Positions 5,224 through 57,488 of a DNA stretch of 64,000 nucleotides are shown here, piece by piece; the stretch's first letter is position 1; every line of letters begins with the position of its first letter. The DNA is from Azolla caroliniana (taxonomy: Eukaryota; Plantae; Polypodiophyta): the NCBI GenBank assembly GCA_043228905.1, contig JBHGNT010000013.1, positions 11,222,001 to 11,286,000 on the forward strand. The letters are read 5' to 3'. A program made the position numbers and the translations under genes. Under the pieces are notes generated by a model. The model did no database searches. It worked only from the letters and a program-made list of their open reading frames with translations, and was not told the origin of the DNA.

Positions 5224-7312
5224 GAATGTTTATCAAACTCACATAGTAGTCTATCAAAAGAATCTCCCAAACTACAATTTTATTGGAAGGGCTAATTAAA
5301 GGCCACTTGAGTGGTGTGTTTTTGGATGTCAAGAATATTGGACCACCGCCTTGTGCGTGGTGTACATACACTTTTGAGTGTGAAATGGTGAGATATGAAT
5401 GCTAGGAGTAGAGGTAGAAAAAGGGGTATTTAATATAGCCTCCCCTCTCCTCCTCTCCCTACAATTAAAACCCCTCAAGGAGGATAATAAGAGTGAAAGG
5501 GAAACTCTAAGTGAGTGTGAACCTACCCTTCCCTCTCCTTCTCTCCCATATGATGAAGAAGCATATGAGATACATAATTCAAAACTAGGCCACCCTACTA
5601 TGGCACTAGTCTAAGAATATTAATTATTGTTAAGGAAAAGTATGGAGAGAAATAAGGAAGAAATGGTGATGGTCTTGTTGGCATAAAAGGCCAACTCCTT
5701 CCAATTTGTATCTTAGTGTGAACACGTCTAAATAGTTAGGGTTTAGTATATAAGCAATAACCTAATGTTGTAATAATAGAGCTTCTTCATCATTCTTGTA
5801 TCATGAGTCTCTGAGAGAGAGATAGAACGAATGCAATAATAGAGCTTCCATTAAAGCTTAAACCGTGTCTATCCTCTCTTGTATCTCCTTGCCTCCACTT
5901 TGTGTGTAGTTTGCTGAACACATACGACAGGTCCTCACACATACGTTTCCGCGCATATTCAACTACAACAACTGGTATTAGAGAGACTTGCGGTTTGATA
6001 GCAACAAACAACAGAAAAGTTGAAAGGAAAAAGACCAAGTCAGAAAAATCTCACTTAGAAGAAGAACATGGCTTCAACATTTGGAACAAGAGTTGAAATC
6101 AAAAAATTCGACGACAAAAACTTTGCCCTATTGAAGGAGATGATGCAAGATGTGTTGATCATCAGAAGACAAGTCGAAGCCATTTGACACAGTGAAAAAC
6201 ATGCCTCAATGATAGCTGAAGAATGGAGATCTATGGATGAAATTGCTCGCTCCACCATTTGAATGCACCTAGTCGAAAACGTCTACTTTAGTATGGGAGA
6301 AGCTACAAGCCATGTACGAGAAAAAGTCATCATCTTGAAAATTGATTTTTCTCAAACAACTGTTCAACATGATGATGAGAGAGACCGATCCGACTACCTC
6401 CCACATCAACACCTTCAGCCGGGTGTTGTAAGAACTCTCCTCACAAGGGATCAACTTCGAAGAAGAAGTGCTCTTCAAAGTTGATCCCCTGCCCTCCTAT
6501 CGAGCTTGTTGGCAAGTTGGGATGTATTTTGCATGACCTACGCCAATAACTGACCAATCCTAAATCTGGATGAGACAATCAGCCAAGTCCTCACCGAAGA
6601 CATTCAAAGAAAATCGATGGGACTCACCATCAATGAGTCGGCAGAAGCCCACCACTCGACCGAGCCGACCAATACATTTAGTTGATCAAGAGAGCAAGCC
6701 GATAGAACCAGTCGGAACACCAACCGATCGAAGATGAGGGGAGACCGACAATGGTCGAAGTTGAGAACAGGCCGATCAGGTGAAGTCTGCACACACTGCC
6801 GAAAATTTGGCCACAATGTTTCCGACGGCTGGTGGATCAAGAGGAAAGAGAGTGGTCGGCGATCCAAGCAAAATCGAGGACGACCCGACTCAGACCACTC
6901 TCCGATTGGCAACCAAATCAACGTTGCTGACACTCGATCAGGAGAAATTCTCTCATTAGAGGATTCAATGATCGGAGAAGTCCTCTACAGTGCACAAGAT
7001 GCACACACGTGGTTATTGGATTTGGGTGCCATATTTCACGTGACCCCAAACATCGAGTGGTTTTCAAACTATTCGGTCGGTGCCAACGGCACAATCCGAC
7101 TAGGCAATAGGTAGGTGTGTAGAATAGTAGGAGTTGGCAAAGTACCGATTCAATTGCCAAACGACAACACAATAATCTTCCATCAAGTCTGACATGTACC
7201 CGATCTGAAAAGAAGTTTGGTCTCCATCGGCATGCTAGCTGAAGATGGGTATCGAACGACTCTAAGTGAGTCGACATGGATGATCAACTAAGGAAACTTG
7301 AGGATAGGAGGC
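5224..7312 (+). mobile_element. Ty1/copia element CopE, 5' part (LTR remnant, PBS at 5973, degenerate gag-protease)
   Basis: caaca-ac-TGGTATTAGAG at 5966-5983; gag MASTFGTRVEIKKFDDKNFALLKEMMQD from 6069; knuckle CTHCRKFGHNVSDG; protease WLLDLGAIFHVT. The LTR start is not defined. Confidence 0.8.
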
Positions 7313-7805: not shown

Positions 7806-7884
7806 TCTTCTTCCTTCTCTTCCTTTATCTTCTTACTTCTCCTTCCCTTCATACTAATCTCTTATTCCTCTTTTCTCTCATACT

Positions 7885-9015
7885 ATGGCCACTGTTAGCA
7901 CTCAAGGATATCAATCCGTTTTTTCGGAGTTGCAATGCTTGAAAGAGAAGTTTCTCGCATTGGAACAAGAAAATCAATGGTTGTTGGGGGAACTTCAACA
8001 AATCTCCTTAGAGAAGCAACATACGCAACAACAACACGGGGAACTAGTGTTACGGGTGCAACAACTCGAAGCAACCATAGTAGCAATGCAACAACAAGGA
8101 CCTAGTACGTAAGGGGTTCATAAAGAACCCAAGATCGGCCATCCCATGAAATTTGATGGAACACGATTGCAGTTTAGAGGATTCCATAATCAAGTACAAT
8201 TAGTCATTCAAATGCATCATGCTCGATATCCCACCGATGCATCACGAGTGGGTTTTGTAGGCACGTTGTTAAGTGGCTCAACTTTGGCATGGTTCACTCC
8301 GTTGTTAGAAAAGGAATCTCCTTTACTAAACAATTTTGAAGAGTTTTTAAGTGAGTTTAAAGCTTGTTTTGGAGATATTGACAACATAAGGACAACAATC
8401 AACAAATTCCGACGATTACGTCAAGGTGATCGTCCAGCCTCCATATACGCTGCAGATTTCCGCCTACTCACCTCCTATATCCCATGGGATGACCAAGCAC
8501 TTATGGAGCAATTTCGTTATGGTCTACATAACGATGTCAAGGATTTACTCTTGACCTTGATGGAAGCAATCAGTCGCGCAGTGAGATGCAACAACCGTCT
8601 TTTAGAACGACGTTCGGAATGTCAGTTCCAGATGCCAAGGGCAAGATCAGAGCCCACCTATGCCTCAGTGGTAGCAAAACCTTTTCCAAGGGAGTCATAT
8701 AATGCGTCTCCAGTGAATACTCCAACTCCGATGGAAATTGACACTACACGTCGTCACAGATCATTATTGGAAGAAGAAAAGCAGCGACGCTAAGCAAATC
8801 GACTATGTCTTTATTGCGGTGGAGCAAGGCATATTGCAGTGAACTGTCCCCATAGGCCAAGAAGACAGTCGAACCAAATAGTTGCTAGTTCTAATTGTAC
8901 TAAACCCGAGTCTATTTCAGTAAGAATATCTGATAGTCCTAATAGTACTAATAGCCCAAATCTATCGAACAAATTTGATGTCCTTAGTCACTTAAAAGAA
9001 GAGTTAAACGACTAA
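7885..9015 (+). pseudogene. gag: Chromovirus Gag (coiled-coil N-terminus, capsid, CCHC knuckle)
   Basis: ORFs 7885-8112 and 8146-8793; PTPMEID motif; CLYCGGARHIAVNC in frame after a premature TAA; terminal stop after EELND. Confidence 0.9.
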
Positions 9016-9055
9016 GTTCAGCCAAAATAGGAGCCGTTTGGTTGGAGAACCCTAG
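9003..9055 (+). promoter_or_regulatory. Putative -1 ribosomal frameshift signal (G_TTA_AAC + stem-loop/pseudoknot)
   Basis: Slippery heptamer in gag frame one codon before the stop; the -1 frame is open into protease; stem 9017-9026/9037-9046. Confidence 0.65.
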
Positions 9056-9472
9056 ATCTGTGCAGCCCATTAGTGGTTCCATTCCCTCTAAGCAAGTTAG
9101 TAATGTGTTCTTAGCCCAAGTAACCATTAGTACTAAAAGTACCTCTCTAGTACATGTCTCAACACTCCTAGATTCCAGAGCTAATTCTTGCTTCATGGAT
9201 AGGAATTTTCCCAAGGTCATCAGATATCCCTAAGGAAACTCCCGTGTCTAGTCTCTGTAGTAGTCATTGATGGTCGTCCTATTGCTTCCGAAAATATCAT
9301 AGAAGAGTCAGAGCCCATTAATATTGTCCTAGATAATTTAGCGTGTGTAGTATCCTTTAATATAACTAGTATCCTAGAACATCCCATTGTTTTGGGATTA
9401 CCATGGTTCAAATTACATAACCCAGACATAGATTGGAGAATAAGAGAAATCCGGTATCGACAAACCCGAGGA
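9016..9472 (+). pseudogene. pol: Chromovirus aspartic protease (ChrA)
   Basis: LLDSRANSCFM (degenerate DSGA) and IVLGLPWF motif; homologous to 40566-40949. Confidence 0.85.
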
Positions 9473-10521
9473 CTCCACTATATATAAGAAGGTTGTATCA
9501 CGTGCGTTCATGACATCATTTATAAACCCCTTATACATATGTTTTTTACTATTTTAGTGACCCTTGTGTAGAAAAAAGATTAATAAAAATACCCCTTATT
9601 ACGAATATATTTTTTGATAATCACCCATTTTAAATACCCTTACATATAAAATATACATGCACACATAGTTTCTATTCCTAGACAGGATCAATGACCGTCT
9701 TTACAATTGATGACTCGCAAAATTATGAATCAACATTAGACATCATATGCAAATTCCTAGAAATGCTTCATCAAGTGCCACATAGATTGAAAACACAATC
9801 TGTAAAGTTCAAAGTAATGCACACACAATTAGGAAACATTACCCAAAAACACTAGAGGTATAATATATACAAGCCACATATAAGTTTTTGTTTTTAGTTT
9901 ATTGAGACGTATGAAGAATAGACTGATAAAAAACAATGTAATTTACAATAAAACAATCTTGAACTTAACATATATATCTCAAAAAACACACATGGAACAA
10001 TCTAAAATGCATATCAATAATGAAATTACTAACAAATTAACATTATGTTTGGTTTCATGGATAGACTCATATGAAGCCATACCATTCTTTTTTCTCAAAC
10101 ACATTGATCAAACAAATGACAACCTACTTCATATTTCCATTTGAAATGTAAGACATCATCTATTCACACATTCTTACCCCAATCAAAATGAAATAAAATA
10201 AATCATTTTGTTATTGCAATATCTACTTAAAAGACTTATTACAATAAAGGTTGCCCTTATAAAGACCAACTATATAAAAAGAAAACCCTAAGAAGTTCAT
10301 TTTAGGCTATAAATTTCATGTCGTTTCCATCTTCAACGTTGGACCTGTATTATAACATGTAACAACAAAGGCAAGAAAACTTAATATACATGGAAGTAAA
10401 TAATATCTTAAAGAAATCAGAAAATATATTTGGAATACCGTATGTTTATATTTGGTTTCTACTCTTTTCTCCTTTTCCTATTAAAATAAAAGGCATAAAT
10501 ATTAAGTTACTTTAATATATA

Positions 10522-13500
10522 TTATATATGTACATGTATGCAAGTATATAATTCAAAACAACTTATATATACATACCTGGATTTCATTTCCAAAAGAAAA
10601 TTGTTGAAAACTTTACAATCACTTCCGTCTAACAGATAATTATCACATTTTGCATTATATGTGAGGTTCGCTAGTCCAATAATTGACTCAAAGTCAACCA
10701 TTTTTATATTTGTCAAATCATATGCAAATAATCTACTCCCTTTAATCTTCCTATACCAACCTAGTTGTAATTGAACATCTTCAAGCCTATCCATCAAGTC
10801 AATTCCTCTCTTGTACTCCACAAATTTATTTCCAATATTTCTTCGCATCCTTTGTACTCGTCCTAAGTACCAAACAACATTTTCATTTGATATTCCTTTT
10901 CTTTTGGGTCTTGTTGAATTAACATCTTCTTCAATAAAGAATACAACGCAATCTAAACCAATCCCAATTAGGAAATTATTTGCATTCTCACATGAGTAGA
11001 AGACCCCTTCTCTTACACGTGTGAGTCTATCCTTTGACAATGTTGGATTACCATTTAGATGACTCACAAGTGTTGATTTAAATATAATCTTATCATCCAC
11101 TTGAACAAATGAAGAGACTTTAGAGTTCACATTGTTGCCATCCAATATAACATCCAATTCATGGCGAATTTCACTTATTGCAATCTCATCATCATTCTCC
11201 ACACATTCATGCATTGTTAAGTTTTTATTGTGTTCAACACATTCTTCATCATCTTTCTCTCCATATATATAACTCAAGGATTGTTTTGTCTCAATCCCGG
11301 GATAATTCCACCATTGCCCATTGAGTTTAGGCTTCATATTTAACGACTCACATAAAATTTGGGCTTCTTTTAAACCTTCTTTAAGTGCAAAAACAAGTTG
11401 ATCATCATTTGAGATATCAATGTAGTCTTGTAAGTTTGCAAGAGGCTTGCCATGCATGAAATTGAGTTTAGACCATATTGATTCTTGCTTCTTGTGAGCT
11501 TTTGGAAAAACCAATCCACTATCACTGCACTCAAATTTGGCAAGCTTGTTTACATTTCCACTACAATGCAAAACATCTGATATATCAAATGCACGCTCCA
11601 TGCCAATCATTCCCCCTATTTTACTAAAAAATATCTCAGCTCCATCAGACCCTGTGAGATGCAATGGACATTCTAGTTGTGGATAAAAGTCACGAAACAT
11701 TTTTATAAGTAAAACTACAAAGTGACAAGATATTTGTACATCCAAAAATGTTTCCCGACTAATGAAATTGCTTTTTAAATTATAAATTGGATTATTTAGA
11801 ATCCATAATCTCCATATTTGAAAGAAGAATGCAACTTTAGATGCAAGTACCACACGCTTGAATAAGCTTTCATGAGGGGATAGAAAAATATCAATATAGT
11901 CACCTAATATATGCAAGTATACATGTGTTCCCAAAGCTCCTCTTTCTCTTACTTTGACACCTTCTCCACCTTGGTATAACATCTTTAAACAATTAGTAAC
12001 ATTTCTACTTGCAATTCTTTGGGCTCCAGCCCAATTTTGTCTATCTTCTCTCTTAATATCACATTCCCTTAAGCCACGTGCATCGATAGAGAAGTTATTA
12101 TATACCAATGACACATGATTCAATGTGATCCATACATCTCCGATTACTAATTGTCTTGAGGGATTATCGAGTGCATTCACAAGTTTCTTTCCATTATGGA
12201 TGAAATCTTGATCATGAAGACAACTTACCATATCATTATGCATTTGACCTGTGAAGATCCAACCATCCCAAGGCAATTTATATCTTAAGCATATGCTTGG
12301 GGTTAAGTAATCTTGAGGCATAATCTTTCTTCTCCTACTATCTCCATCTGATGCATGTCCAACAATTGGCACAATACTTGTGGATAGGTGTTTTTCCCAT
12401 AGAGTTTCCAGTTCATTCCATTGGCATTTTACAAAATCCACATCAAAGCAATTACATGTACATTGTACAACCAATACTAATCGTGGAAGTTTAGGGTGAA
12501 GAGGATTCACAATTAACACCCTAGCATAGTGTCCAACCACATAGTCTTTAAAGGAGCTAACAATGGTTTCATAACCAACATTAGAGTCACCCACCTTTAT
12601 CATACATGATGAGACAATTGATGATTGGATGACTTCAGCCCACAAAAACCCAAAAGTAAATCATTTGAGCTATCCCACTTAACATTCCGCTTAATCATAG
12701 TCTCATCCTCGGCAATAATGAAAGGAACCTTTGTTATAATGCCATGCACTCTTTTTTCATTTTCATAAATCTTAGCCACATCCTGGAATATATATTCATG
12801 GATCCCTAGAAGGAATTTAGTTGTCTTCCTCTCAACTCTCTTTGTAGTGCTTAATGATGGTCCATCTAAATTTTTAGAAACAAAGTCGTGTAATCTTGGT
12901 CCACCCCACATTTTTTTCATGAAGAAAATTGCCTTAGATGTGTCTTTGAATCGTTGTCCAGCTAGCTTTTGAGTAAGGTTTTGTGCAACATCTGTCAAGA
13001 AATCCCATAATGCATTCTTTCCACCAAAATTTCCAGCTCGATGAGCCACAATAATGTTATTACAAAATCTTCGAACATCCTTCTGTTCCACACTCTCAAG
13101 GGATGCTTACTTGAGAGTCATTACCTTTACCGAAAGCATTGCAATGTTGCAAGCTAGCCACCATATTTGTCTATGAGCGTGACGGATAGTTTGCTTAGAA
13201 CTTGAAATTTCCTTTCTTGTCTCTTCTTAAGTAAGATAATCTAGTCGCCTACCCTCCCTAGTTCCTCGATTACCTCTTTTGACTTTAGCCCCACGCTCCC
13301 TATACACCCTCATATGGAAATCATTACATTTTGGAATTTCAGTACATTTTTCACATGTAAGATTATGAAAGGGTTCTTCAAGCGTCGATACTCTTTTACA
13401 ATCAAAATGGTGAAAACATCCATCAATAACACACTGTTGCATCTCGTACATCACAACAGCTTTTGTGTAAGGCTCAGAGAATCATAAGGCTCCATGATTT
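10522..13500 (-). pseudogene. P-element/THAP9-like DDE transposase (~1000 codons, two stops and one frameshift)
   Basis: Motifs in order: AEDETMIK...WD...LLGFCG, HASDGD, DQDFIHNGKKLVN (DxxHxxK), EDRQNWAGAQRI, GSDGAEIFFS. 707-aa open segment 10522-12645; splice-donor-like CAG|GTATGT at 10576. Confidence 0.7.
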
Positions 13501-14229
13501 TGATCGATGAGAAATGATTTTACATGTATCTCAAGTCTCCCTTTACTTTGTGTTACACTTAAGGTTATGCTTTTTTATTGTTTACGGTTTAATCATTTTA
13601 TTAGTTTTTATGTTTAGCCCCCACCACGCCCCAGCCCCCTTCCCCTTTCTCCCTCTCTTTCATTTTTTAATTAGTGTCACAAAATGTGAATATAAAGGTT
13701 TGAACTTGTGACCTTCAAACAATGGTCTTACACTTCAACCATTGCACCAACTCATTTTCATTAATAAATACATTTTCATATTATTATTATTCAAGAACTG
13801 TAGAGCACTAGACACATTAGATGATCGCCAAATGGCATGCACCCTGTACGCCAAGTGGCGCACAACATGTATGCCAAATGGCGATCATGCACATTTTGAT
13901 GTTCAATATATAAGTCAAAGATCTGCTTAGTGTTGAACCATTCCGGTTCAACACCAGTCTTCAGCAACCTTGTAATCTCGGTTTCCGGTAATAGAAATTC
14001 TTGTATTTTTGTCTTGTAAACGTCTTCTCGTTTGTTATTATCTTCTTTTCTTCATCTGATGGAGTGTTCGTGGGTTTAGGGTTTCCGACATCCCAACTTG
14101 ATGTGCTTGATGGTTCGTGTGGCGCTCCTTAACTAGTATAGCTACTAGCACTTGATCTAGGGTTTAAATGCTTACTGACAACATACTTTTCATAGCCTCC
14201 CTACATCATTTCGAGCAATTCCAAAGAAT

Positions 14230-14453
14230 TCTTCTTTAAAGTGGCAGTAACGTGTTTGAAGAGATAACACAATAGCTTCAAGTTGTTGGACACGTTTCGA
14301 GAGTTCCTCATGTTGTTGTGCCTTTTCAATGCTCACTTGTTGCAAGTCGCCAAGAAGTTTATGATTCTCTTGTTCCAATGCAACAAATTTTGTTGTTAGG
14401 AGGTCAAGTTCTGAGAGAATACGCATATACTCTTGTTTACTGACGGTCTCCAT
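14230..14453 (-). pseudogene. gag: Inverted Gag N-terminal fragment of ChrB
   Basis: METVSKQEYMRILSELDLL...LEQENHKLLGDLQQVS is homologous to ChrA Gag MATVSTQGYQSVFSEL...LEQENQWLLGELQQIS but on the opposite strand to ChrB pol. Confidence 0.85.
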
Positions 14454-14484
14454 TGTGACGGAAAAACTTCACTAGATACTCGAG

Positions 14485-17252
14485 AAAAAAAAAAGTGGGC
14501 TCTTTACGTTTGGGCGTAGATTATCAAGGCTTGAACAAGGTTATGATTCGAAATCGATATGCTCTACCATTGATTCCAAATCTCTTGGAACGTCTCAATG
14601 GGGCCAAATACTTCACAAAGCTAGACTTACGAGGAGCTTACAACCTTGTTCGTATTCGACCTGGTGATGAATGGAAAACTGCTTTTCGCACACGATATGG
14701 TCATTTTGAGTACACAGTAATGCCATTCGGGCTTACAAAAGCTCCAACAATTTTTCAATATATGGCAAATGATATCTTTCGAGATTTCCTCGATATCTTC
14801 ACGATAATTTACTTGAATGACATACTAATCTATTCAAAGACACAAGAGGAGCATAATAATCATGTTAACAAGTTCTACAACGATTACGGGAATTTGGTCT
14901 TTATGCCAAACTAGAGAAGTGTTGGTTTGACCGCAATCAAGTCGAGTTTCTAGGGTATATGGTCTCTCCAGAAGGTATTTTAATGGATCCAAAGAAAGTA
15001 CAAACAATTCTAGATTGGAAGACACCAGGCTCAGTTCGTGATCTGCAATGTTTCTTGGGATTTGCGAATTTCTACCGCAAGTTCATCAAGAGTTACTCAA
15101 AAGTTGTTTTGCCCCTCACGGAACTAACATAGAAGAACCGACCATTTGTATGGACATCAAGCACAACTGATGCATTTAATAGCTTGAAGCAAGCATTTAC
15201 ATCTGCTCCCATTTTGGTCCACGTTGACCTTAAAAAGCCGTTTATCATAGAAGTAGATGCATCTGATTTTGCACTAGGAAGTGTTCTATCACAAGTAGCG
15301 GATGATGAGAAATTACATCCAGTTGCATTTCATTCAAGAAAGTATGAACCTGCAGAAATCAATTATGAAATCCATGACAAAGAATTGTTGGCAATTGTTG
15401 ATTCTTTCGGACAATGGCGTCACTTCTTGGAAGGTTCTCCCCACCAAATTATTGTTTACAACGATCATAAAAAGCTCACATACTTTCAAAATGCTCGAGT
15501 TCTAAATCGACGACAAGCTCGATGGGCACAATTTCTAACACGGTTCAACTTTGTGATAACATATCGACCAGGAACACAACAAGGTAAAGCTGATGCCTTA
15601 TCAAGACGCTCTTATTTTGCACCAAAACCGGGGGACCCAACTTACGACAATCAAGGTAAAGCTGATGCCCTAGTCGTGTACGATTAATGGTGACAAATGT
15701 TGCTGAGACAACTTTGGATTCAAAATTTCTCGATTCTATTCGCTCGAGCATTGGTTCAGATGATTTTGCACAAGATATTTTAGACCACATTGTTCCAGAT
15801 CGTGCTTCTTGTTCACGCTCCAAGTTTTCTCGCATGGATTATGGGAACTTCAGTTGGCATGATGGGTTGTTTTTTCGAAACAACCGTACTTATATTCCCA
15901 ATGGACCTTTTTGACTTGAAGTCTTGCATCACTGCCATGATTCACCGCTAGCTGGACATTTCGGAGTTTTGAAAACATTAGAGCTAGTTACCCGAAACTA
16001 TTGGTGGCCTCAGGTTCGTCAGTTTGTCATAAACTATGTTTCTACTTGTGATGTATGTTGTCGATCAAAGATGCCTCGACATCGGCCATATGGTTTGTTG
16101 CACCCATTGCCCATTCCAGATGGTCCGTGGAAATCCATTTCTATCGATTTCATCACAGATCTCCCATCTTCCCAAGGCTATGATGCAATTCTTACAGTGG
16201 TGGATCGCTTTACAAAAATGGCACATTTTCTTCCATGTAGAAAAACTTTTACTAGTCAAGAATTGACAAGTCTTGTTATCCGAGAAGTTTTCAAGCACCA
16301 TGGCCTTCCAGATGAAATCATTAGTGATTGTGGACCACAATTTATTGCAAAGTTTTGGACACACTTACTTGAGAGCCTTGGAATTTCTCGTAAACTATCT
16401 TCAAGCTACCATCCTCAAACCGATGGGCAAACGGAACGCACAAATCAAACATTAGAACAATATCTCTGTTGCTTTATCAACTATCAACAAGATGATTGGA
16501 TGGATTTCTTACATATGGCAGAATTTGCTTACAATAATTCAATCCATTCTTCTACGGGATTCACTCCGTTCTTTGCAAACACAGGATATCATCCTTGATG
16601 GATGATGCTCAAATGTCCAAAAGTCTCAAAAAATCCCACGGTCAAAGATCGTCTAGAAAAACTCAAAGAAATTCAAACCAACCTTTCTCACAATTTGCTT
16701 CATGCTCAAGCCAAGTACAAGAAGATGGCGGATAAACATCGCTTAGATTCTTCATTTGAAGACCCTAAGTTTAAAGTTGGTGATCGTGTTTGGTTATTGC
16801 GTCGTAATGTGAAAACTACTCGACCAAGTGTCAAATTGGATTTCCAACGTCTAGGTCCATTTGTAATCTCTCATCAAGTCAATGATGTTGCATTTCGTCT
16901 GGACCTACCTTCACATATGCGTCTTCATCCAGTATTTCATGTTTCATTATTAGAACCATGGACATCAAGTTCTATTCCAAATCGGGTTATCCCACCACCA
17001 CCTCCGGTTCAACTTGCTGAAGGACCTGAATATGAAGTAGAAGCTATTTTGGACTCTAAGGTCATCTGCAATAAGTTATATTATCTAGTAGATTGGCTAG
17101 GATACATGCCTGCGGATCAGACATGGGAACCTGCAATGAACGTCACTAATGCCTCTGAACTTATACAAGAGTTTCATCTTCGTTATCCCCATAAACCAAA
17201 ACCTAGTTCATGCATTGTGACTCATGGAACTCGTCGTCAAAGGAGGGGATGA
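14485..17252 (+). pseudogene. pol: ChrB pol: RT, RNase H, integrase, chromodomain
   Basis: [65 protein letters not shown]...YYLVDWLGY...TWEP. Confidence 0.95.
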
Positions 17253-17667
17253 TGTCACAAAATGTGAATATGAAGGTTTGAATTTGTGACCTTCAAACAA
17301 TGGTCTTACACTTCAACCATTGCACCAACTCATTTTCATTAATAAATACATTTTCATATTATTATTATTCAAGAACTCTAGAGCACTAGACACATTAAAT
17401 GACCGCCAAATGGCATGCACCCTGTACGCCAAGTGGTGCACAACATGTATGCCAAATGGCGATCATTCACATTTTGATGTACAGTAAATAAGTCGAAGAT
17501 CTGCTTAGTGTTGAACCATTCCGGTTCAACACCAGTCTTCAGCAACCTTGTAATCTCGGTTTCCGGTAATAGAAATTCTTGTATTTTTGTCTTGTAAACG
17601 TCTTCTCGTTTGTTATTATCTTCTTTTCTTCGAAATTGACCTTGTCTTCGAAGCTTGGGTCGTGACA
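17253..17667 (+). repeat. 3' LTR of ChrB
   Basis: Near-identical to 13675-14053; TG...CA termini. Confidence 0.92.
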
Positions 17668-17859
17668 ATTAGTATGTTAATCCTCTACCCTTGCACGTCT
17701 TCTTAATACCTACTCCCGTCTCTTCGTATACACCAAGCACTCTATCAATTCGGGTGCGCTCAATCGACCTTGGTGTTCCTCTTCTCTGATATCTCCTCCT
17801 GCCTGCCGATGATCCACCATTTCCGCACTCCTCGTCTACAACCTCGCGGTCAACAATAA

Positions 17860-30599: not shown

Positions 30600-32000
30600 T
30601 AACTGATATAGCTAACTATCTTTGACTAATAACGGATGTAGCTAATTACCTGATATCGCTAATAAGTTAAGGCCACTAACTGATATTGCTAAAAAGCTAA
30701 GGCCACTAACTTGTAATTAGTTAAGGCCAATAGCTGATATCACTAAAAAGCTATGGACACTAGCTGATATTGCTAATTAGTTAAGGCCACTAGTTGATAT
30801 CGCTAAAACGTTATGACTAGTATGTTGGGAGACAGGTCCCTCTGGATGGGAAGGGAGAAGAACAGTGCCGATGAACAAACTCGGCCGAGGCCGAAACCGT
30901 ATGAGGTGGACCCGGCTACGGAGAGCCGGATGATGCAAACCCGGTGAAGACCGGATGAGGAGTACCCGGCTACGGAGAGCCGGATGGTGCAGACCCGGTA
31001 TGAACCGGATGAGGAGTACCCGGCTACGGAGAGCCGGATGGTACAGACCCGGTGAGAACTGGATGAAGAGACTATATTTGTAAATAGCCGAAAAGTCATA
31101 TTAGTATAAATATGACTTAGGGCAAACCTTTTTTTTTATGATGTGAGTGTTGTTACTTTCTTGTTGGTGCAAGAAGAAGAGAGAGCACGTAACAATGTAC
31201 AGAGATAGAGAGAGGAAGAGGTCGCTGCCTCTGTTGTAACCGCCGCCTGTGGCGAAGATCGTGAGCACGAGGTCGCTGCCTCCGTGAACTCACTGTTTTG
31301 TACATTCTTACATAGTGATAGTTTGTAGCCTGTGGGCTGTCGTGGTTTTTCCCTCTTTGGGTTTTCCACATAAACCTCCTGTGTATCTTCCTCTTCTTTG
31401 TGTCGCGTCTTATTTCCCGTTTTCTGTGTATCAATCTAAGCTCGGTTGTGGCCGAGCGTTGCGCATAAGGAACGACCAGTTCCCGTCATAGTAGTTGATA
31501 TTGCTAATTAGTTAAGGCCACTAGTTGATATCATTAAAAAGCTATGGCCACTAGCTAATATCACTAAAAAGCTATGACAACTACCTGATATTGCTAGTTA
31601 GCTAAATACTTTAGCTGATATCGTTAATTAGCTAAATACTTTAGCTGATATCTCTAATTAGCTAAATACTTTAGTTGATATTGCTAATTAGCTAAAGACT
31701 TTAACTGATCTAGCTATTTAGGTAAGGCCACAAGCTGATATCGCCAATTACCGAAATACTTTAATTGATATCGCTATTTAGCTAAGGCGGGTAGTTGATA
31801 TCATTAATTAGTTAAAAACTTTAGCTGATTTAGCTATTTAGCTAAGGCCACTAGTTGATATCGCTAATTAGCTAAAGACTTTAGCGGATCTCGTTGTTTA
31901 GCTAAGGCCACTCGTTGGTATAGCTAATTAGCTATGGACATTACCAAGTGCTAATGAGCTTTGACCACTACATGTAGCTAATTAGCTTTGGCCACTAATT
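30600..32000. repeat. ~30-bp palindrome-rich tandem array (consensus ~TAGCTGATATCGCTAATTAGCTAAGGCCAC), split by solo LTR
   Basis: Repeated units at ~30600-30815 and ~31490-32000. Confidence 0.85.
30823..31488 (+). mobile_element. Solo LTR (CopL/CopD-related family)
   Basis: TGTTGGG...CGTCA; TSD TAGTA at 30818-30822 and 31489-31493; homologous to 63228-63929. Confidence 0.92.
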
Positions 32001-32715: not shown

Positions 32716-33612
32716 TCTCTATGATGCTCCAAACTTCCATTCTCAACCATAGGAGCCACACCTTCATGCATATATAGCCTTTGTACATAGTCTAACATCT
32801 CTTCATTTGTAAAGTGGCCTTTCACATCTTCTTTCTTATCCTTGAGTTGTCCCCATGCTAATTTTGGTTTGAGCTTAAACAAGTTTTTCTTTTTCATCTC
32901 TTGCATTTGGAAATATCTTCTTTTCTTTCTCCTCACTACTTTCTTATATAGGTGCCATGCAACAATCTTTTCATTTCCCCCCTCTATGGACTTAAACCAT
33001 TTGAGATACATCTTACATTCATCGTCAAACCAAGAATCACATGGAAAACTACATGTATGTCTTATGCTCACCCACATGCCTCTTAAAGTATTGATACCCA
33101 ACCTTAAAGATGATATCCTTCAAATGTTACCAATTTTCTTTAATGTTGTTGCTTACAGAAAAATTTAACAAATGGTTCTCCACTTCATTTGCATACATCT
33201 TAGCTTTTTTGTGGCAAGGTCGGATGATACATCTTTTTTCATCTTTCACACCATGGCATATATTGGAGAAATGTGGAATTGTAAGCTCTCGGTACAATGG
33301 CTTGTGGTCCGAGTCCGGAGATAGAGAACGAACATTAAACACATTCACCAATGATAGATCACATGCCAACATTAATGCGTAATCAACCACACTTCCTCCA
33401 CCCGAGGATGGTAAACATGTGATCACATTTGTCAATGGGAATGCCTTTATACCATTTAGGATAATGTAGTTTGTGCAATTTAACATATGTATCAAAAGTT
33501 TTCCATAATTAGACATGACACAATCCTTTGAGTCACGCAAAAGACAATGTTCTACTACATTTTCTTCAAATGTCTCCACATTTTGGAAATTTCCAACTCT
33601 TTCATTGAAGTC
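32716..33612 (-). pseudogene. Non-LTR retrotransposon (LINE) AP-endonuclease and linker fragment
   Basis: DFNERVG...RDSKD...YGKLL...IILNG...GGSVVDY...SDHKPL, then SWFDDECK linker. Confidence 0.8.
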
Positions 33613-33673
33613 AAGGAGAAAGATACAAGAACAACTAGGAGGCTTAAGACTGGCGTTGAACCGAATTGGTTCT

Positions 33674-36600
33674 TGTTGAGAATCAAGCTCAACATAGCAC
33701 AACGTGTGAACACACATTTTGAGAATCTATGATTACTCAAAGGTCAAGAGTCACACCACTACTCTCTACACATTAACTATGTGTCATAGAATAATATTCT
33801 ATAACACATAACTAATGAGTTACATATTCCCCATGACTATGAGTCTTCACATTCCCCAAGAGAGAGAGTGGTTGTTGTAAGTTAATGAAGAGAGAGGGTG
33901 ACTCTATATAAAGCACCCTCCTTATACTTCATACTAAGTTGGTTGTGACTCCTTAAAGAAGAAAGGAAGCGTAATCGACAATGAATACTCAAATGGGGAG
34001 CGCTCTCCCTAGTGAGAAGTTGGACTGAAACAACTTCGCATCTTGGGAGTACAAGATGCACCAATACCTTGTCGGCCAAGGCTATTGGGGTTACATCAAG
34101 GGAGCACAAGAAAACCGACCCAAGCCAAAAGACGCTGACTATGCAACGTGGGAGCAAGCGGCAAGCCGAGTGATGTATTGCTTGGCGACATGTGTTCACG
34201 ACCACATGCTTGGGTACATTCGAGAAGCCGAGACGCCGAAGGAAGCGTGAGAGAATCTACGAAAGATTTTCGCCGCCAACACTACCGCGAGAAAGCTTCA
34301 ACTCCGCCAAGAGTTGAACAACATCCAACAAAGGGATATTTCCATCACAAGCTACACCTTGAAGATCAAGGAGCTTTGCGACTCGCTTGGCTCGATAAGC
34401 GTCAATGTGGACGATGATGAGATGGTGCAAATATGCCTCGGCGGCCTTGCACCATGATTCGGCGTGATGCGGACCGCCGTACTAGCACGGGAGAATCCAC
34501 CCTCATTCGATCTTCAATCTCTGTTGTTGGTCGACGAAAACCATGTTCGAACGAGGAGCAACGCCTTGGAAGGCCACATGCTCTACATGCATTCGGACGG
34601 AGGAAGAGGATGCGGCCGTGCAAGAAGAGGCCGATTCGGCCAAGGACGAGGCGGACGAGGCCCGACGTACAAAAACAACTCACAATTTCGGCATCAAGAC
34701 GGAAGCCATCGAGGAACCTTCGGAAGAAGGGGGAGCTTCCATTCCAGTCCGAACCGACAAAGCTCGGTTGAATGCGGATATTGTGGAAAAATCGGTCACC
34801 ACGAAAAGAATATCGTAAGAAGATACGCGAGTCGGATTCCACTAGCCGATAACTCACCAACTACGCCATCAACTCTGACTATGACGATCACGGTGGAATG
34901 TTCGTGATGAGACATAGAGCGAATTCTATGTCGGCCTCTACTTCTACTAATGCCTCCGGTCCGAAAGATGTATGGTTCGTCGATTCCGGTGCCTCAAACC
35001 ATATGACGTCGCATCAAGAATGGTTCCGAGAACTTCGAGAGCTGGACCGACCTGGGTATGTCAAAACTAATGACGACACTATGCACCCGATTCGGCACAT
35101 CGGCAATGTTCCGTTCGGAGAAGAAGATAAACAAACTTATATTAAAAATGTCTTGCATGTACCAACTATCACGAAGAATTTGGTCTCCGTCGGCCAAGTT
35201 GTAGAGCAAGGAATGCAAGTACGATTTAATCAAGGCAGTTGCTTCATCGAAAAAGAGGGCCGACTCATCGCTTGCGAACGAAGAGAGGGCCGAATGTTCA
35301 TTCTTGACTCACACGAGATGAAATCGGCCATGTTCACAAAGGGCATGAAAGCTAATTCCGACATAGAGTTATGGCACAAGCGGATTGGCCATATCAACCT
35401 CCAAAAGCTCAAGGCAATGCAATCGAAAGGAGTCGTCATCGGGCTCCCGAAATTCACGGAGAAAGAGATTGAAGGCGTGTGTGCCGCTTGCCAATTCGGC
35501 AAGTGACATCGGCACCCATTTCCGAAGGAGCAGAACGTGAGAAAAGGCATACTCGACGTAATTCATTCCGATGTATGGGGATCGGCTAAAATGGTGACAT
35601 TCGGCGGATACCGATACTACGTGACCTTTATCGACGACTTCTCTAGGCACACTTCAATCTACCTGATGCGGCAAAAGAGCGAAGTGTTCAGACACTTCCA
35701 AAATTTCAAGAATGAAGTCGGGAAAGCCACTGGCCGACATGTACGATGTCTTCAACCAGATGGAGGGAAGGAATATTTCTCGGATGAGTTTACGGCGTAT
35801 CTACAGAAAGAAGGAATTCGGTGAGAGTTTTCGTGTCAACATACGCCACAACAAAACGGAGTGACCGAACAAAAGAATTGACACATCCTCGAAGTAACAT
35901 GGGCCATGAACGAAAAGCACGTTCCAAAGTCATACTAGGCAAAAGCGGCTAACACCGCCGTATACCTCATGAATCGGTGTAGGACATCGGCATGCATGAC
36001 CTTACTCCGCACGAGAAGTTCTTCGGAAAGAAGCCGGACCTATCACATGTTTAGATATTCAGCTCCATTGCGTACATGCACATCCCCGACGAGAAGCGTC
36101 AAAAGCTCGACCCGAAGTCGGAGAAATGTATTCTCATAGGATACTCACTGGAGCAAAAGGGGTAAAAGTGCTACAACCCCTCAACTCGAAAAATCTCGAG
36201 TAAGTCGAGACGTCGTTTTCAACGAGTCCACATCCTGGTACGCACCAGAGACAACTTCGACTTCGATTTTGCTCGACCTGGATTCCGCCGAAATAGAGAT
36301 AGACGCAGAAGATCGACTCATGCGCATGTTCGAAGAAACCCCAATTATGACAAGGCTTAGTGGGCCACAAGAGCCACCGAGCGATCAAAGCACATCTCGG
36401 CCGAGTCCGAAGATGGACAAAGGGAAGGTGAAAATGCCGGAGTATGAAGACGATCACTTCGACGGCAACGAATCAACTCACTCCCTCGATAGTGAGTTCG
36501 AAGGCCTTGAGATCCAGACAAATGGAGCGGAGAACGTTGTAGTATCCGCAAACAAGAAGCTCCGCCGATCCACCCGTGAAAAGAACCCCGTAAGCCAATT

Positions 36601-54273: not shown

Positions 54274-56186
54274 GATGATAACAGATGATATATTATATGA
54301 AGAGTAAGTACAAAATGACTATGAGGCTTAAGATTGACGTTGAACCAATTTGGTTCAACCTAATGCCTTGTGCCTCCTTTTATAGTCTTCTCAAGAGGAG
54401 TCATGAAGCTTCATGTTCTAGAGAAATCTGGAATATACATTAATTTCCTATAATAAAACTTAAATGAAAATAATATCCTACATATTACAAGAGATGGAAT
54501 AATGGTCAAGAGCTCGACCCATATAACATAAGGTCATGGGTTCGAGTCTTGCCATATCATGACATTATCCCCCCCTTAAGACAACGAGTGTAACGAGTCA
54601 GCGCTGATTGAGGACCGGGTTTGTTTGGATATTGTCGGTGGAAATCAGCAAGAAGATCCTGAGCATTGGCGACATGCTCGACGGGTTCCCAAGTATGTTC
54701 GCTCAAACTATAGCCAAGCCAATCGACCAAATAATAAAGTTTGTTGCGAACAAATTTGGAGTCCAGGACGGTAGCAACTTCATACTCCGGGCCGACGTCT
54801 AACTCAAGCGGGGGCGGCGCTAGTGTAACACGATTGGGAATAGTGTTTGCTTTATAAGGTTCAAGAAGAGAACTATGGAAGACTGGAGGAAGATCAAGGC
54901 GGAATGTGACATCATTAACCTTACCGGTAATACAAAAAGGACCAAGTCGTTGATAATACAACTTGTCGCATGGTCGAGTAGACTTGATGTGACGACGTAA
55001 GAGCCATACTCGATCTCTGATGGCAAAAGAGGAGGGAAGCCGATGATGATCCGCATAAGTCTTCTATGTGTGTTGAGCATGAAGAACATGACTAGAGAGA
55101 TCCATCTGGATCTTGCGTAGCCTCTCCAAATGATCCTCGGCATGAGGATTGGTTGGTGGCTCCGGGGTGTCAATCACAGACCAGCGAGGATGAGAACCAG
55201 TATAAGCATAAAATGGGGAGACCCAAGTCGAGGAGTGAATAGCGTTATTATAAGCAAACTCCGCAAAGTGGAGAATATCAGCCCAATCATCCTGCTGATA
55301 ACTCAGAAAACACCGGAGGTATTGCTCCAATGTTCGATTTGTTCGTTCCACCTACCCATCGGTCTAGGGATGGTAGCCGGAGGAGAGGTTACAAGAGACC
55401 TTGAGCATCTTGAAGAGATGCTTCCAAAATTTGGAGACGAATTGAGGTCCTCAGTCATTGACGATACTGTTTGGTAGGCCATGATGCCGAAATACCTCAC
55501 GCATGACAAGGGCGAAGGTTTTCTCACTAGTGATGGCCTTAGTACACGGCACAAAATGTGCCATCTTAGTATATCGATCAACGATGGTTAAGATAGCATC
55601 GAAACCATGCGAGCCCGGCAGATCTGTGATAAAATCAAGACAAATAGACTGCCACGGCTTACTTGGAATCTAGTGGAGTGTGAAAAATCCGCGTTGTGTG
55701 CAAACGTGTTGGTCCCAAGATTACCTGCTTTTGATTATCAAACGATGGAACATCAAGACAAGGTGCAAGATATTAACACCATGATAGTGCATCTACTTTT
55801 ACTTGCTGCTTCCTCGGTCGATATGTGATTTTCAAGTCAAAACGCGTGAGGAATCGGGCCCACCGAGCTTGCCGTCGATTTAGTACACAAGCATTCTGGA
55901 AATAAGCAAGGTTTTTGTGATCACTGAAGACGAGGACCTGATGTGGAGAGACCTCTAAGAAGTGCCTCCATTGCACAAATGAATCCACAATGGCTAATAA
56001 CTCCTTGTCATGTATCTCGTAGTTGATTTCCGCGGCATCAAATTTGCGCAAATGGAAAGCCACAGGATGTAACTCTTCTTCATCTCCTTGTTGAGAAAGG
56101 ATGCTACCGAGGGCGAAATCCGATGTGTCGGCCTCCATGATGAATGGTTTGTTTATATCCACATGAGCTAGAATAGGAGTTGATAT
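54115..56186 (-). mobile_element. Chromovirus ChrJ 3' half: RH, integrase, chromodomain, PPT, 3' LTR 54115-54564
   Basis: EADTSDFALG, ERTNRTLEQYLR, YEVATVLD...DWLGY...TWEP; PPT AAGGGGGGGATAA; LTR similar to ChrA. Confidence 0.9.
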
Positions 56187-57488
56187 GTGGATATTTTGAT
56201 AAGTTAAGAACACTTGAGACCTTATTGTCTGACAATATAGAAGACATCCTACTAAGTGCATCTGCACTAGGCATTCATCTCCAACATCCTTGGGCAACCT
56301 TCGAAAATGTGGCAAACAAGTTTTTTTCTTATCCATTCCATCTATAATGAAGCACATATGTCTTTCTAGTGATTGAAGCGCTTTGTGACAATGGTGCATA
56401 GTTTTAGATCTTTCCAACGCCTGGCTTTCTCGATGTTCTCTCAATAAATTCTTGTATTTTTTTATTTCTTCATATGTTGTCCCACTCTTGGCCATGCTTT
56501 TTAAACTCACACATATAGAACAAACACCCATCCGAACCTTGCGGGGTATGACCACATTGTTAAACTTCAATCTCCATAAACGATTAAAATGTCGATATTG
56601 TATATAAGGTACACTTTCCAATAACATGTCATCCTTATACACTTGGTATACCTCACAACGAGTGAAGTTATCTGAAAAATGTAACCTTCCAATAGTGGGC
56701 ATAACATCACATTGCTTTGAGAAATATATCTCCATCCATCTAACGGCATGTCGCCCAATTAGACCCTTACATGTAGATTATGTATTGTTGAAAGGTACCT
56801 ACCACCCCTTAAGTAATCGATGTTGAATTCTTTGTAGCCTCATGTTCCCGATGCTATAGGCAATTTTAAAAGCAACTCAACAACTCTTCATAGTAAGTGA
56901 AAGGTAATATTCCACCTGCTGAGAACATGACACTGCCAGATGGTCCTTCACAATTTGCATATTTGTCGCAACCCCCGCAAGTTTGCCTTTCAAAATTTTG
57001 ATAAACAAAGGCTCCCACAACATACCTTGCATATATCAATTGCAATTTGGCGATCCTAACATAGAAAATTATATCGTTTAATGCTCACTTGTCGAGCAAC
57101 TCTTCGAAAATTTAGATGCTTGTTGACACAATCGTCGTCAACATTTGAAAAACTAGACTCGTCATGATTTTTATCTACTTTAATATTTCTTATTTTACCT
57201 AAGCTAAAGGGTTCTATCGAAAAAAGTGACATCAAACTTTGCTCTCGATCGTCGTTTGACTCTATATTGTTTATTATTAATATGGTTATATTCCTCGATT
57301 GAGAATAACGAGTTATCAAATAATTTAAAAGACTCAATACAAAACAAAGAATTTTAACTCGAGTTTGAGGACATTTTGAGTAAGGGGGGCTAAGATCACA
57401 AGAGTCCAAAATAGGCTCAAGTTTAGTTCTATAATAAGCACCATGTCCAAAAGCATTTATTTAAAATAAATTATTTTTTAAAAATCCC
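56187..57488 (-). pseudogene. Sola-like (DUF7869-type) transposase N-terminal part and upstream region
   Basis: CDVMP...RLH, FNRLWR...VVIP...MGVCSIC, HRESQALER, IIDGMDKKKTCLPHF; fused to chromovirus RH at ~56186. Confidence 0.65.

Follow-up and report, generated by a model that had tools for sequence, protein, structure and literature searches.

The 64,000-nucleotide stretch of DNA analysed here (the window) raises the question of whether a long, damaged reading frame on its minus strand descends from a P-type transposase, a kind that the earlier note on this DNA took to be overlooked in land plants, and whether its family was retained there or acquired from elsewhere. We consider it probable, relying on structure prediction for the protein, that the window holds a dead, 5'-truncated copy of a young, multi-copy cut-and-paste DNA transposon with 17-bp terminal inverted repeats (TIRs) and 8-bp target duplications, whose transposase is predicted to have the P fold and likely stands for a branch of the P superfamily that is divergent, lacks THAP and has likely resided in non-seed land plants since before ferns and liverworts split.

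The AT-rich frame of about 1,000 codons with few lesions, described in the earlier note, is real. It is carried on the minus strand as three pieces (Table 1) in a region of 28-38% GC, and its lesions, as judged against other copies, are two stops (13227-13229 and 13107-13109) and one frameshift, a 1-base gap near 12617, with an additional 18-base in-frame gap near 10968. The motifs that had been read in it, in the order DET, SDGD, DxxHxxKxxxN, DRQN, GSDxxExFFS, VWYLGRVQRM and LGWYRK, are all present and are conserved among 171 relatives that cover the core. The unbroken protein is represented here by the database protein P0003 (1,122 aa), which is 94% identical over the 712-aa piece and is possibly derived from a collapsed assembly of many copies. 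In P0003 numbering the D/D/E triad corresponds to D389, D509 and E746, found in 88%, 97% and 94% of the 171 relatives; D389 was placed by alignment with D230 of P transposase, and D509 and E746 by motif and fold position. The DxxH behind the second Asp (D556-H559) is conserved too, H559 reaching 99%.

Table 1. Features of the window, with positions counted from its first nucleotide.
Feature	Position	Strand	Remarks
Host Ty3/gypsy element (gag, protease)	7858-9472	+	interrupted by the transposon fragment; resumes at ~17860
3' terminal inverted repeat	9465-9481	-	window copy reads CCCGAGGA.. inward; family CCCGGGGACT[C/T]CACTAT
Subterminal ~10-bp motif WAAGGG(G)TWTT, two copies	9588-9642	-	picked by eye from the same ends
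GT..AG intron	10344-10438	-	downstream of the reading frame; spliced in X20 contigs
Splice acceptor	10477-10478	-	in X20 joined by two upstream donors, catalytic exon skipped
712-codon open frame	10522-12660	-	starts at beta-3 of the RNase H core; also holds the helical insertion domain, the catalytic D and E and the C-terminal domains
Donor-like site CAG/GTATGT (cut 10577/10576)	10571-10579	-	after the last conserved helix
Predicted C-terminal beta-barrel domain, BAH/Tudor/chromo-like	10590-10980	-	structure prediction
LGWYRK	10764-10747	-	motif
VWYLGRVQRM	10875-10846	-	motif
GSDGAEIFFS	11652-11623	-	motif
DRQN	12045-12034	-	motif
DQDFIHNGKKLVN (DxxHxxKxxxN)	12213-12175	-	motif
SDGD	12351-12340	-	motif
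EDET	12710-12699	-	motif
168-codon piece	12600-13106	-	HTH domain and first catalytic Asp (EDET, aligned with P transposase D230)
84-aa piece	13227-13481	-	Cys/His-rich, zinc-binding-like, not THAP; region extends to the break at 13532
Unrelated young Ty3/gypsy element	13675-17668	+	LTRs 97% alike, 5-bp ATTAG duplication; adjoins the break

Compared with full copies, the transposon match in the window spans only 9465 to 13532, where it breaks off; the copy is dead and lacks its 5' end. The fragment separates the protease of a host Ty3/gypsy element from its reverse transcriptase, and the outer 8 bases of its 3' end also belong to this retroelement, whose own junction sequence, CCCGAGGA, resembles the transposon end at 7 of 8 positions; intact host junctions are present in DNA runs. 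Because the junction 8-mer is common to host and transposon, two origins can be considered: either the copy inserted and then lost one duplicated 8-mer together with its 5' half, or it is filler DNA captured through microhomology. A clean insertion was rejected, since one end and the target duplication are absent. The segments 13533-13674 and 17674-17859, divided by the young LTR element, match neither transposon nor host. Further along the window, a minus-strand frame at 55773-56777 begins with some 185 codons (WMEIYF..C..MP..H..C..C..H..IIDGMD) that stand ahead of a retroelement RNase H and resemble part of another DNA transposase, perhaps a Sola-like one; the Pfam matches of this frame are to RNase H only. 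A 30-bp tandem unit with many TAGCTA/GATATC palindromes forms two arrays, at 30600-30835 and 31463-31973, and a 199-codon minus-strand frame at 33127-33726 has the appearance of a LINE endonuclease fragment (SDH motif), with no Pfam match.

Beyond the window, 67 protein matches, which are a lower bound and not a copy number, are distributed over large contigs of the 523-Mb genome, and exact searches returned 37 matches for a 24-base 3' end and 20 for a 34-base 5' end, reversed controls returning none. The inverted ends measure 17 bp (CCCGGGGACT[T/C]CACTAT), with 16 of the 17 terminal bases matching, and both share a subterminal CACGTG.GTTCAT and a repeated 10-bp motif; the latter, WAAGGG(G)TWTT, of which full copies carry two or three instances close to the 5' end as well, would likely provide transposase binding sites, its shuffle control being flattering because the motif was chosen by eye. 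Among 30 loci examined, 20 copies had both ends, two of them representing one duplicated site, and an 8-bp target duplication was found in all 20 (16 perfect, 4 with 7 of 8 positions). The ends start with CCC (CCCGGGG), every paired copy begins with CC, and the 3'-terminal G is kept. Copies measure between 3.7 and about 15 kb and are TG/TATG-rich in the middle, and one further copy spans about 32 kb between its ends. The 190 pairs that can be formed from 20 copies give a pS of 0.056 and a pN of 0.028, which points to a young burst under some purifying selection; none of the 20 copies examined has an unbroken frame, which counts against the reading preferred here. All five short copies examined carry the same two internal deletions at different sites, each with its own duplication, and were therefore moved in trans. 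For copy number and TIRs, which the earlier note had named as a check, the outcome is a transposon in many copies, its ends inverted and its targets duplicated over 8 bp. Copy pairs with common flanks were also observed on C3 (23.02/23.06 Mb), C5 (12.97/13.00 Mb) and C17 (2.25/2.33 Mb), and these are either local segmental duplications or assembly duplicates.

The relationship of the transposase was approached through its predicted fold. The AlphaFold model of P0003 has a pLDDT of 83.7, with a confident core. Foldseek placed 6p5a first (E 2.8e-10), ahead of RAG1 (5.7e-5), Transib (3e-3) and Hermes (7e-3), and VIA-align against 48,161 chains gave Drosophila P transposase a Z of 25.6 (rmsd 4.6, 407 residues, 15% identity), followed by RAG1 (8.8), ISCth4 (8.6), Transib (8.3) and Hermes (7.9). 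In this predicted model the match covers the HTH, the RNase H fold and the helical insertion domain that splits it, which agrees with the earlier assignment of the motif order to the P-superfamily RNase H fold and, in the structural check against rival superfamilies, leaves hAT far behind. Sequence searches speak in part against this assignment: the family stays below the cut-off of every P family in Pfam (PF21787 comes closest, E 0.055), and neither phmmer nor the first profile (A1) found P transposase among PDB sequences. A profile of 62 divergent relatives did rank P transposase first among PDB sequences (E 0.031), aligning EDET with D230 and DRQN with the K398-K400 stretch, and Atlas neighbours bear P-type Pfam families.

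It is highly improbable that the frame is contamination or encodes a hAT, MULE, Transib or Kolobok transposase. Although RAG1, Transib, Hermes and ISCth4 all appear among the fold matches, and hAT elements, whose transposases have a Hermes-type fold with a BED finger and a dimerisation domain, likewise produce 8-bp target duplications, the rival folds among those matches, none of them a Kolobok structure, remain at Z 7.9-8.8 and Pfam gave no hAT match; Kolobok duplicates TTAA, whereas the duplicated 8-mers here vary freely in sequence. Contamination, which the earlier note had already held to be unlikely, fits poorly with copies on many large contigs among plant retroelements and with element DNA in runs of at least five organism labels, as well as in leaf and plant metagenomes.

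Closeness to the P/THAP9 family in the narrow sense is another matter. The Cys/His-rich N-terminus that had been noticed is present, but Pfam scans of the window pieces, P0003, exon 2 and the relatives found no THAP domain, so that the designation "THAP9-like" was not borne out and THAP9 homology of the N-terminus was rejected. P element ends begin with 5'-CA. Narrow membership was set aside as well, given the missing THAP domain, ends that start with CCC and not CA, and a weakly BAH-like C-terminal barrel. The residues that contact GTP in P transposase have been given as D528, K385, K400, V401, S409, F443, D444 and N447 (PMC7776569). The terminal G of the P element contacts GTP as well, and P-type transposition is further marked by a GTP requirement and a 17-nt staggered cut at the ends. 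According to a weak alignment (1.1 bits) and motif position, three of the eight have identical counterparts (D528 in D743, D444 in D661, S409 in S622) and five are changed (K385 to G601, K400 to N613, V401 to W614, F443 to I660, N447 to L664); no canonical P-type GTP domain (PF21788) passed the cut-off in this genome.

These differences bear on whether the family should instead be regarded as a separate superfamily, sister to P, with the same core fold and 8-bp stagger but other end recognition, no GTP cofactor and a chromatin-reader C-terminus. The low identity to P would accord with this, as would the number of relatives that a profile search recovers among 50%-identity clusters (5,958 at E<=0.001) when only one of 40 distant ones tested passes the Pfam cut-off for the P HTH, the CCC ends without THAP, the changed counterparts of K385, K400 and N447, and a C-terminal barrel in 78 of 96 long relatives where PMC7776569 describes an all-helical P domain. 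We nevertheless judge it unlikely, since the high Z value extends over HTH, RNase H and insertion domain together, the D528 counterpart is kept in 85% of the 171 relatives, the 8-bp duplication and 3'-terminal G are the same, and the Atlas neighbours grade into P-annotated clusters; what separates the two readings is in part a question of naming. On the modelled fold, the likely placement is within the P superfamily, as a divergent branch. The family works like a P element in its ends, 8-bp duplication and trans-mobilised deletions, as its copies demonstrate, and it is predicted to do so in fold and triad.

The beta-rich C-terminal domain that had been claimed is indeed a predicted beta-barrel. 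Folded alone, it best matches BAH domains (Z 8.1, 79 residues, rmsd 2.5); in Foldseek its best E is 3.4e-3, with no match at E<0.001, and it has neither a Pfam nor an Atlas match. Its BAH likeness stands at the level of a common barrel and may serve as a lead. Among distant relatives, P0096, P0098, P0142 and P0145 carry extra C-terminal domains over the Pfam cut-off (Tudor PF21743, SAP, C1), which suggests repeated gain of chromatin- or DNA-binding modules.

Splicing was followed in contigs of a single run, X20, whose RNA status is a guess, mapped on the fuller copy L021. GT..AG joints were seen at 6489/6408, 2904/2794 and 6100/2942; another, at about 7097/2942, is close to canonical, and a loose end is compatible with an intron spanning 8586 to 7225. 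Where 2942 is the acceptor, the catalytic region is left out entirely, and short finger proteins would result. The splicing check thus gave GT..AG joints in a probable RNA run, but the joint inside the window (10344-10438) was absent from three other runs examined, and polyA raw-read runs (organism label D) yielded 0, 0 and 7 reads, too few to test splicing. The splice-donor-like site that had been noticed near the 3' end of the frame is present at 10577|10576, although no joint uses it; one X20 contig ends at 10579, a weak hint in its favour, and this donor could plausibly join the acceptor used by the skipping forms. Upstream lies a coding exon of 244 codons that includes a CxxC..H..H finger and resembles Adiantum proteins (E 1e-26); it is open in two of the five copies that contain it whole. 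Together with the main exon it would give a protein of about 1,380 residues, a length derived from the splice joints.

Concerning the host, the genome encodes an LHCII protein of land-plant type, which agrees with the land-plant host proposed earlier. Among 120 relatives listed, 22 are labelled (8 Adiantum, 10 Riccia, 1 Amphiura and 3 belonging to a EukProt set, probably of a jellyfish), none of them from seed plants, and those labelled are annotated as "hypothetical proteins". Two trees were built: a FastTree of 156 rows, for which the 238 of 519 proteins that covered the core were thinned out at 85% identity, and an IQ-TREE quick tree of 73 rows, in which the plant group was defined from the earlier FastTree. 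The named plant rows (Adiantum and Riccia) fall in one clade outside the animal clades (FastTree 1.0; SH-aLRT 100); in the quick tree, 8 of the 29 rows of this clade are named plants, most tree rows being unlabelled. The clade is long-stemmed and the family is sister to Adiantum (99), so the host is likely a fern.

Transposons often move between hosts, and a transfer into plants from an animal, fungus or protist, once early or repeatedly, would explain the 35-41% core identity of animal relatives, which is high for a divergence of such depth, and the patchiness of the named matches, with two plant genera. Such a transfer is nonetheless rather unlikely: the fern and liverwort sequences form a single long-stemmed clade separate from those of animals, a pattern that speaks for long residence in plants more than for recent transfer or contamination, and a scan for close relatives, insensitive to distant ones, found none in viral or prokaryotic contigs. 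Of the two origins offered in the earlier note, retention in an old plant clade is the one that the tree favours, and recent acquisition from animals is not; a single transfer before land plants diversified is possible. The sequences indicate that the lineage has likely been in non-seed land plants since before the fern/liverwort split.

As to novelty, the plant TIR superfamilies number six in the review PMC9033089 and seven in the review PMC10741241, and both lists omit P. By contrast, the 2015 survey PMC4438587 records P for every group, land plants among them, and in its supplement P is ticked for Linum, Gossypium raimondii, Azadirachta, Coffea canephora and Actinidia, not for Selaginella, so that the qualifier "overlooked" holds for the former lists and not for the latter. 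An existing entry for the family as a plant P element, whether in Repbase, in Dfam or in a genome paper, would be in keeping with that survey and with the curated P elements of Chlamydomonas and some fungi (PMC9977147 and PMC5751038, respectively). We doubt that there is one, since the ticks were compiled from genome papers and all concern angiosperms, the TIR lists omit P, and the named relatives are no more than "hypothetical proteins". A search of the literature on plant P elements, with Repbase, Dfam and key reviews outside its scope, found no description of the lineage, nor did one on BAH domains in P-type transposases; passages of PMC12477816 on the subject mention neither P element nor BAH.

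Taken as a divergent P branch, the family can be given a provisional mechanism. The protein of about 1,380 residues would likely bind the transposon ends through two C2H2-like fingers, the Cys/His domain and the P-type HTH, and the D389/D509/E746 site would likely cut out the element; the 3'-terminal G of each end would then likely be joined to target sites 8 bp apart, a spacing shown by the duplications. Deleted copies with intact ends multiplied in trans, as common breakpoints with different flanks show. The C-terminal barrel might perhaps help to choose chromatin targets, and forms that skip the catalytic exon would likely give short DNA-binding proteins acting as repressors. A wider scheme, namely an undescribed lineage, sister to P and spread across eukaryotes, that has persisted in land plants from before the fern/liverwort split and is lost or rare in seed plants, with GTP-free P-type chemistry, BAH-like targeting and self-restraint by exon-skipping forms in parallel to the fly P repressor, is speculative and improbable as a whole.

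The family is thus a real one of P type, mobile until recently in a land plant outside the seed plants. With it, the few cut-and-paste superfamilies curated for land plants gain one of P type, and it illustrates how a large family can escape Pfam, its unannotated relatives numbering thousands across plants, animals and other eukaryotes. To our knowledge, no transposase other than P transposase needs GTP; where that cofactor came from and whether it is necessary become testable with a natural relative that keeps the fold and the terminal G while its pocket has changed. As a recently active plant element, it could also serve mutagenesis in ferns and bryophytes.

Among known systems, the P element of Drosophila melanogaster (PDB 6p5a, 6pe2; PMC7776569) shares with this family the HTH, the split RNase H fold with helical insertion, the D/D/E triad, the 8-bp duplication, short TIRs with subterminal repeats, the 3'-terminal G, internally deleted non-autonomous copies and alternative splicing. 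It differs in having THAP in place of two C2H2-like fingers and a Cys/His domain, TIRs of 31 bp as opposed to 17 bp with CCCGGGG ends, a length of 2.9 kb as opposed to 8-12 kb with TG-rich introns, and a helical C-terminus as opposed to a beta-barrel, five of eight GTP-contact residues being changed here and short forms arising here from skipping of the catalytic exon. THAP9 and the zebrafish P-like elements also have the P-type core, short TIRs and 8-bp duplication (PMC7776569, PMC10983969), whereas THAP9 is a single-copy human gene with a THAP domain and the present family is mobile and THAP-less. Chlamydomonas P-2_cRei and the fungal Repbase P elements are non-animal members of P (PMC9977147, PMC5751038). 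RAG1/Transib, Hermes (hAT) and ISCth4 (IS256/MULE) share an RNase H fold with helical insertion, at the far lower Z values already given. The C-terminal domain, finally, resembles the BAH domains of DNMT1 (BAH1), ZMET2, EBS, AIPP3 and ORC1b (Z 7.3-8.1, about 80 residues, rmsd 2.5-3.5) at 8-17% identity, with chromo, Tudor and PWWP barrels scoring nearly equal.
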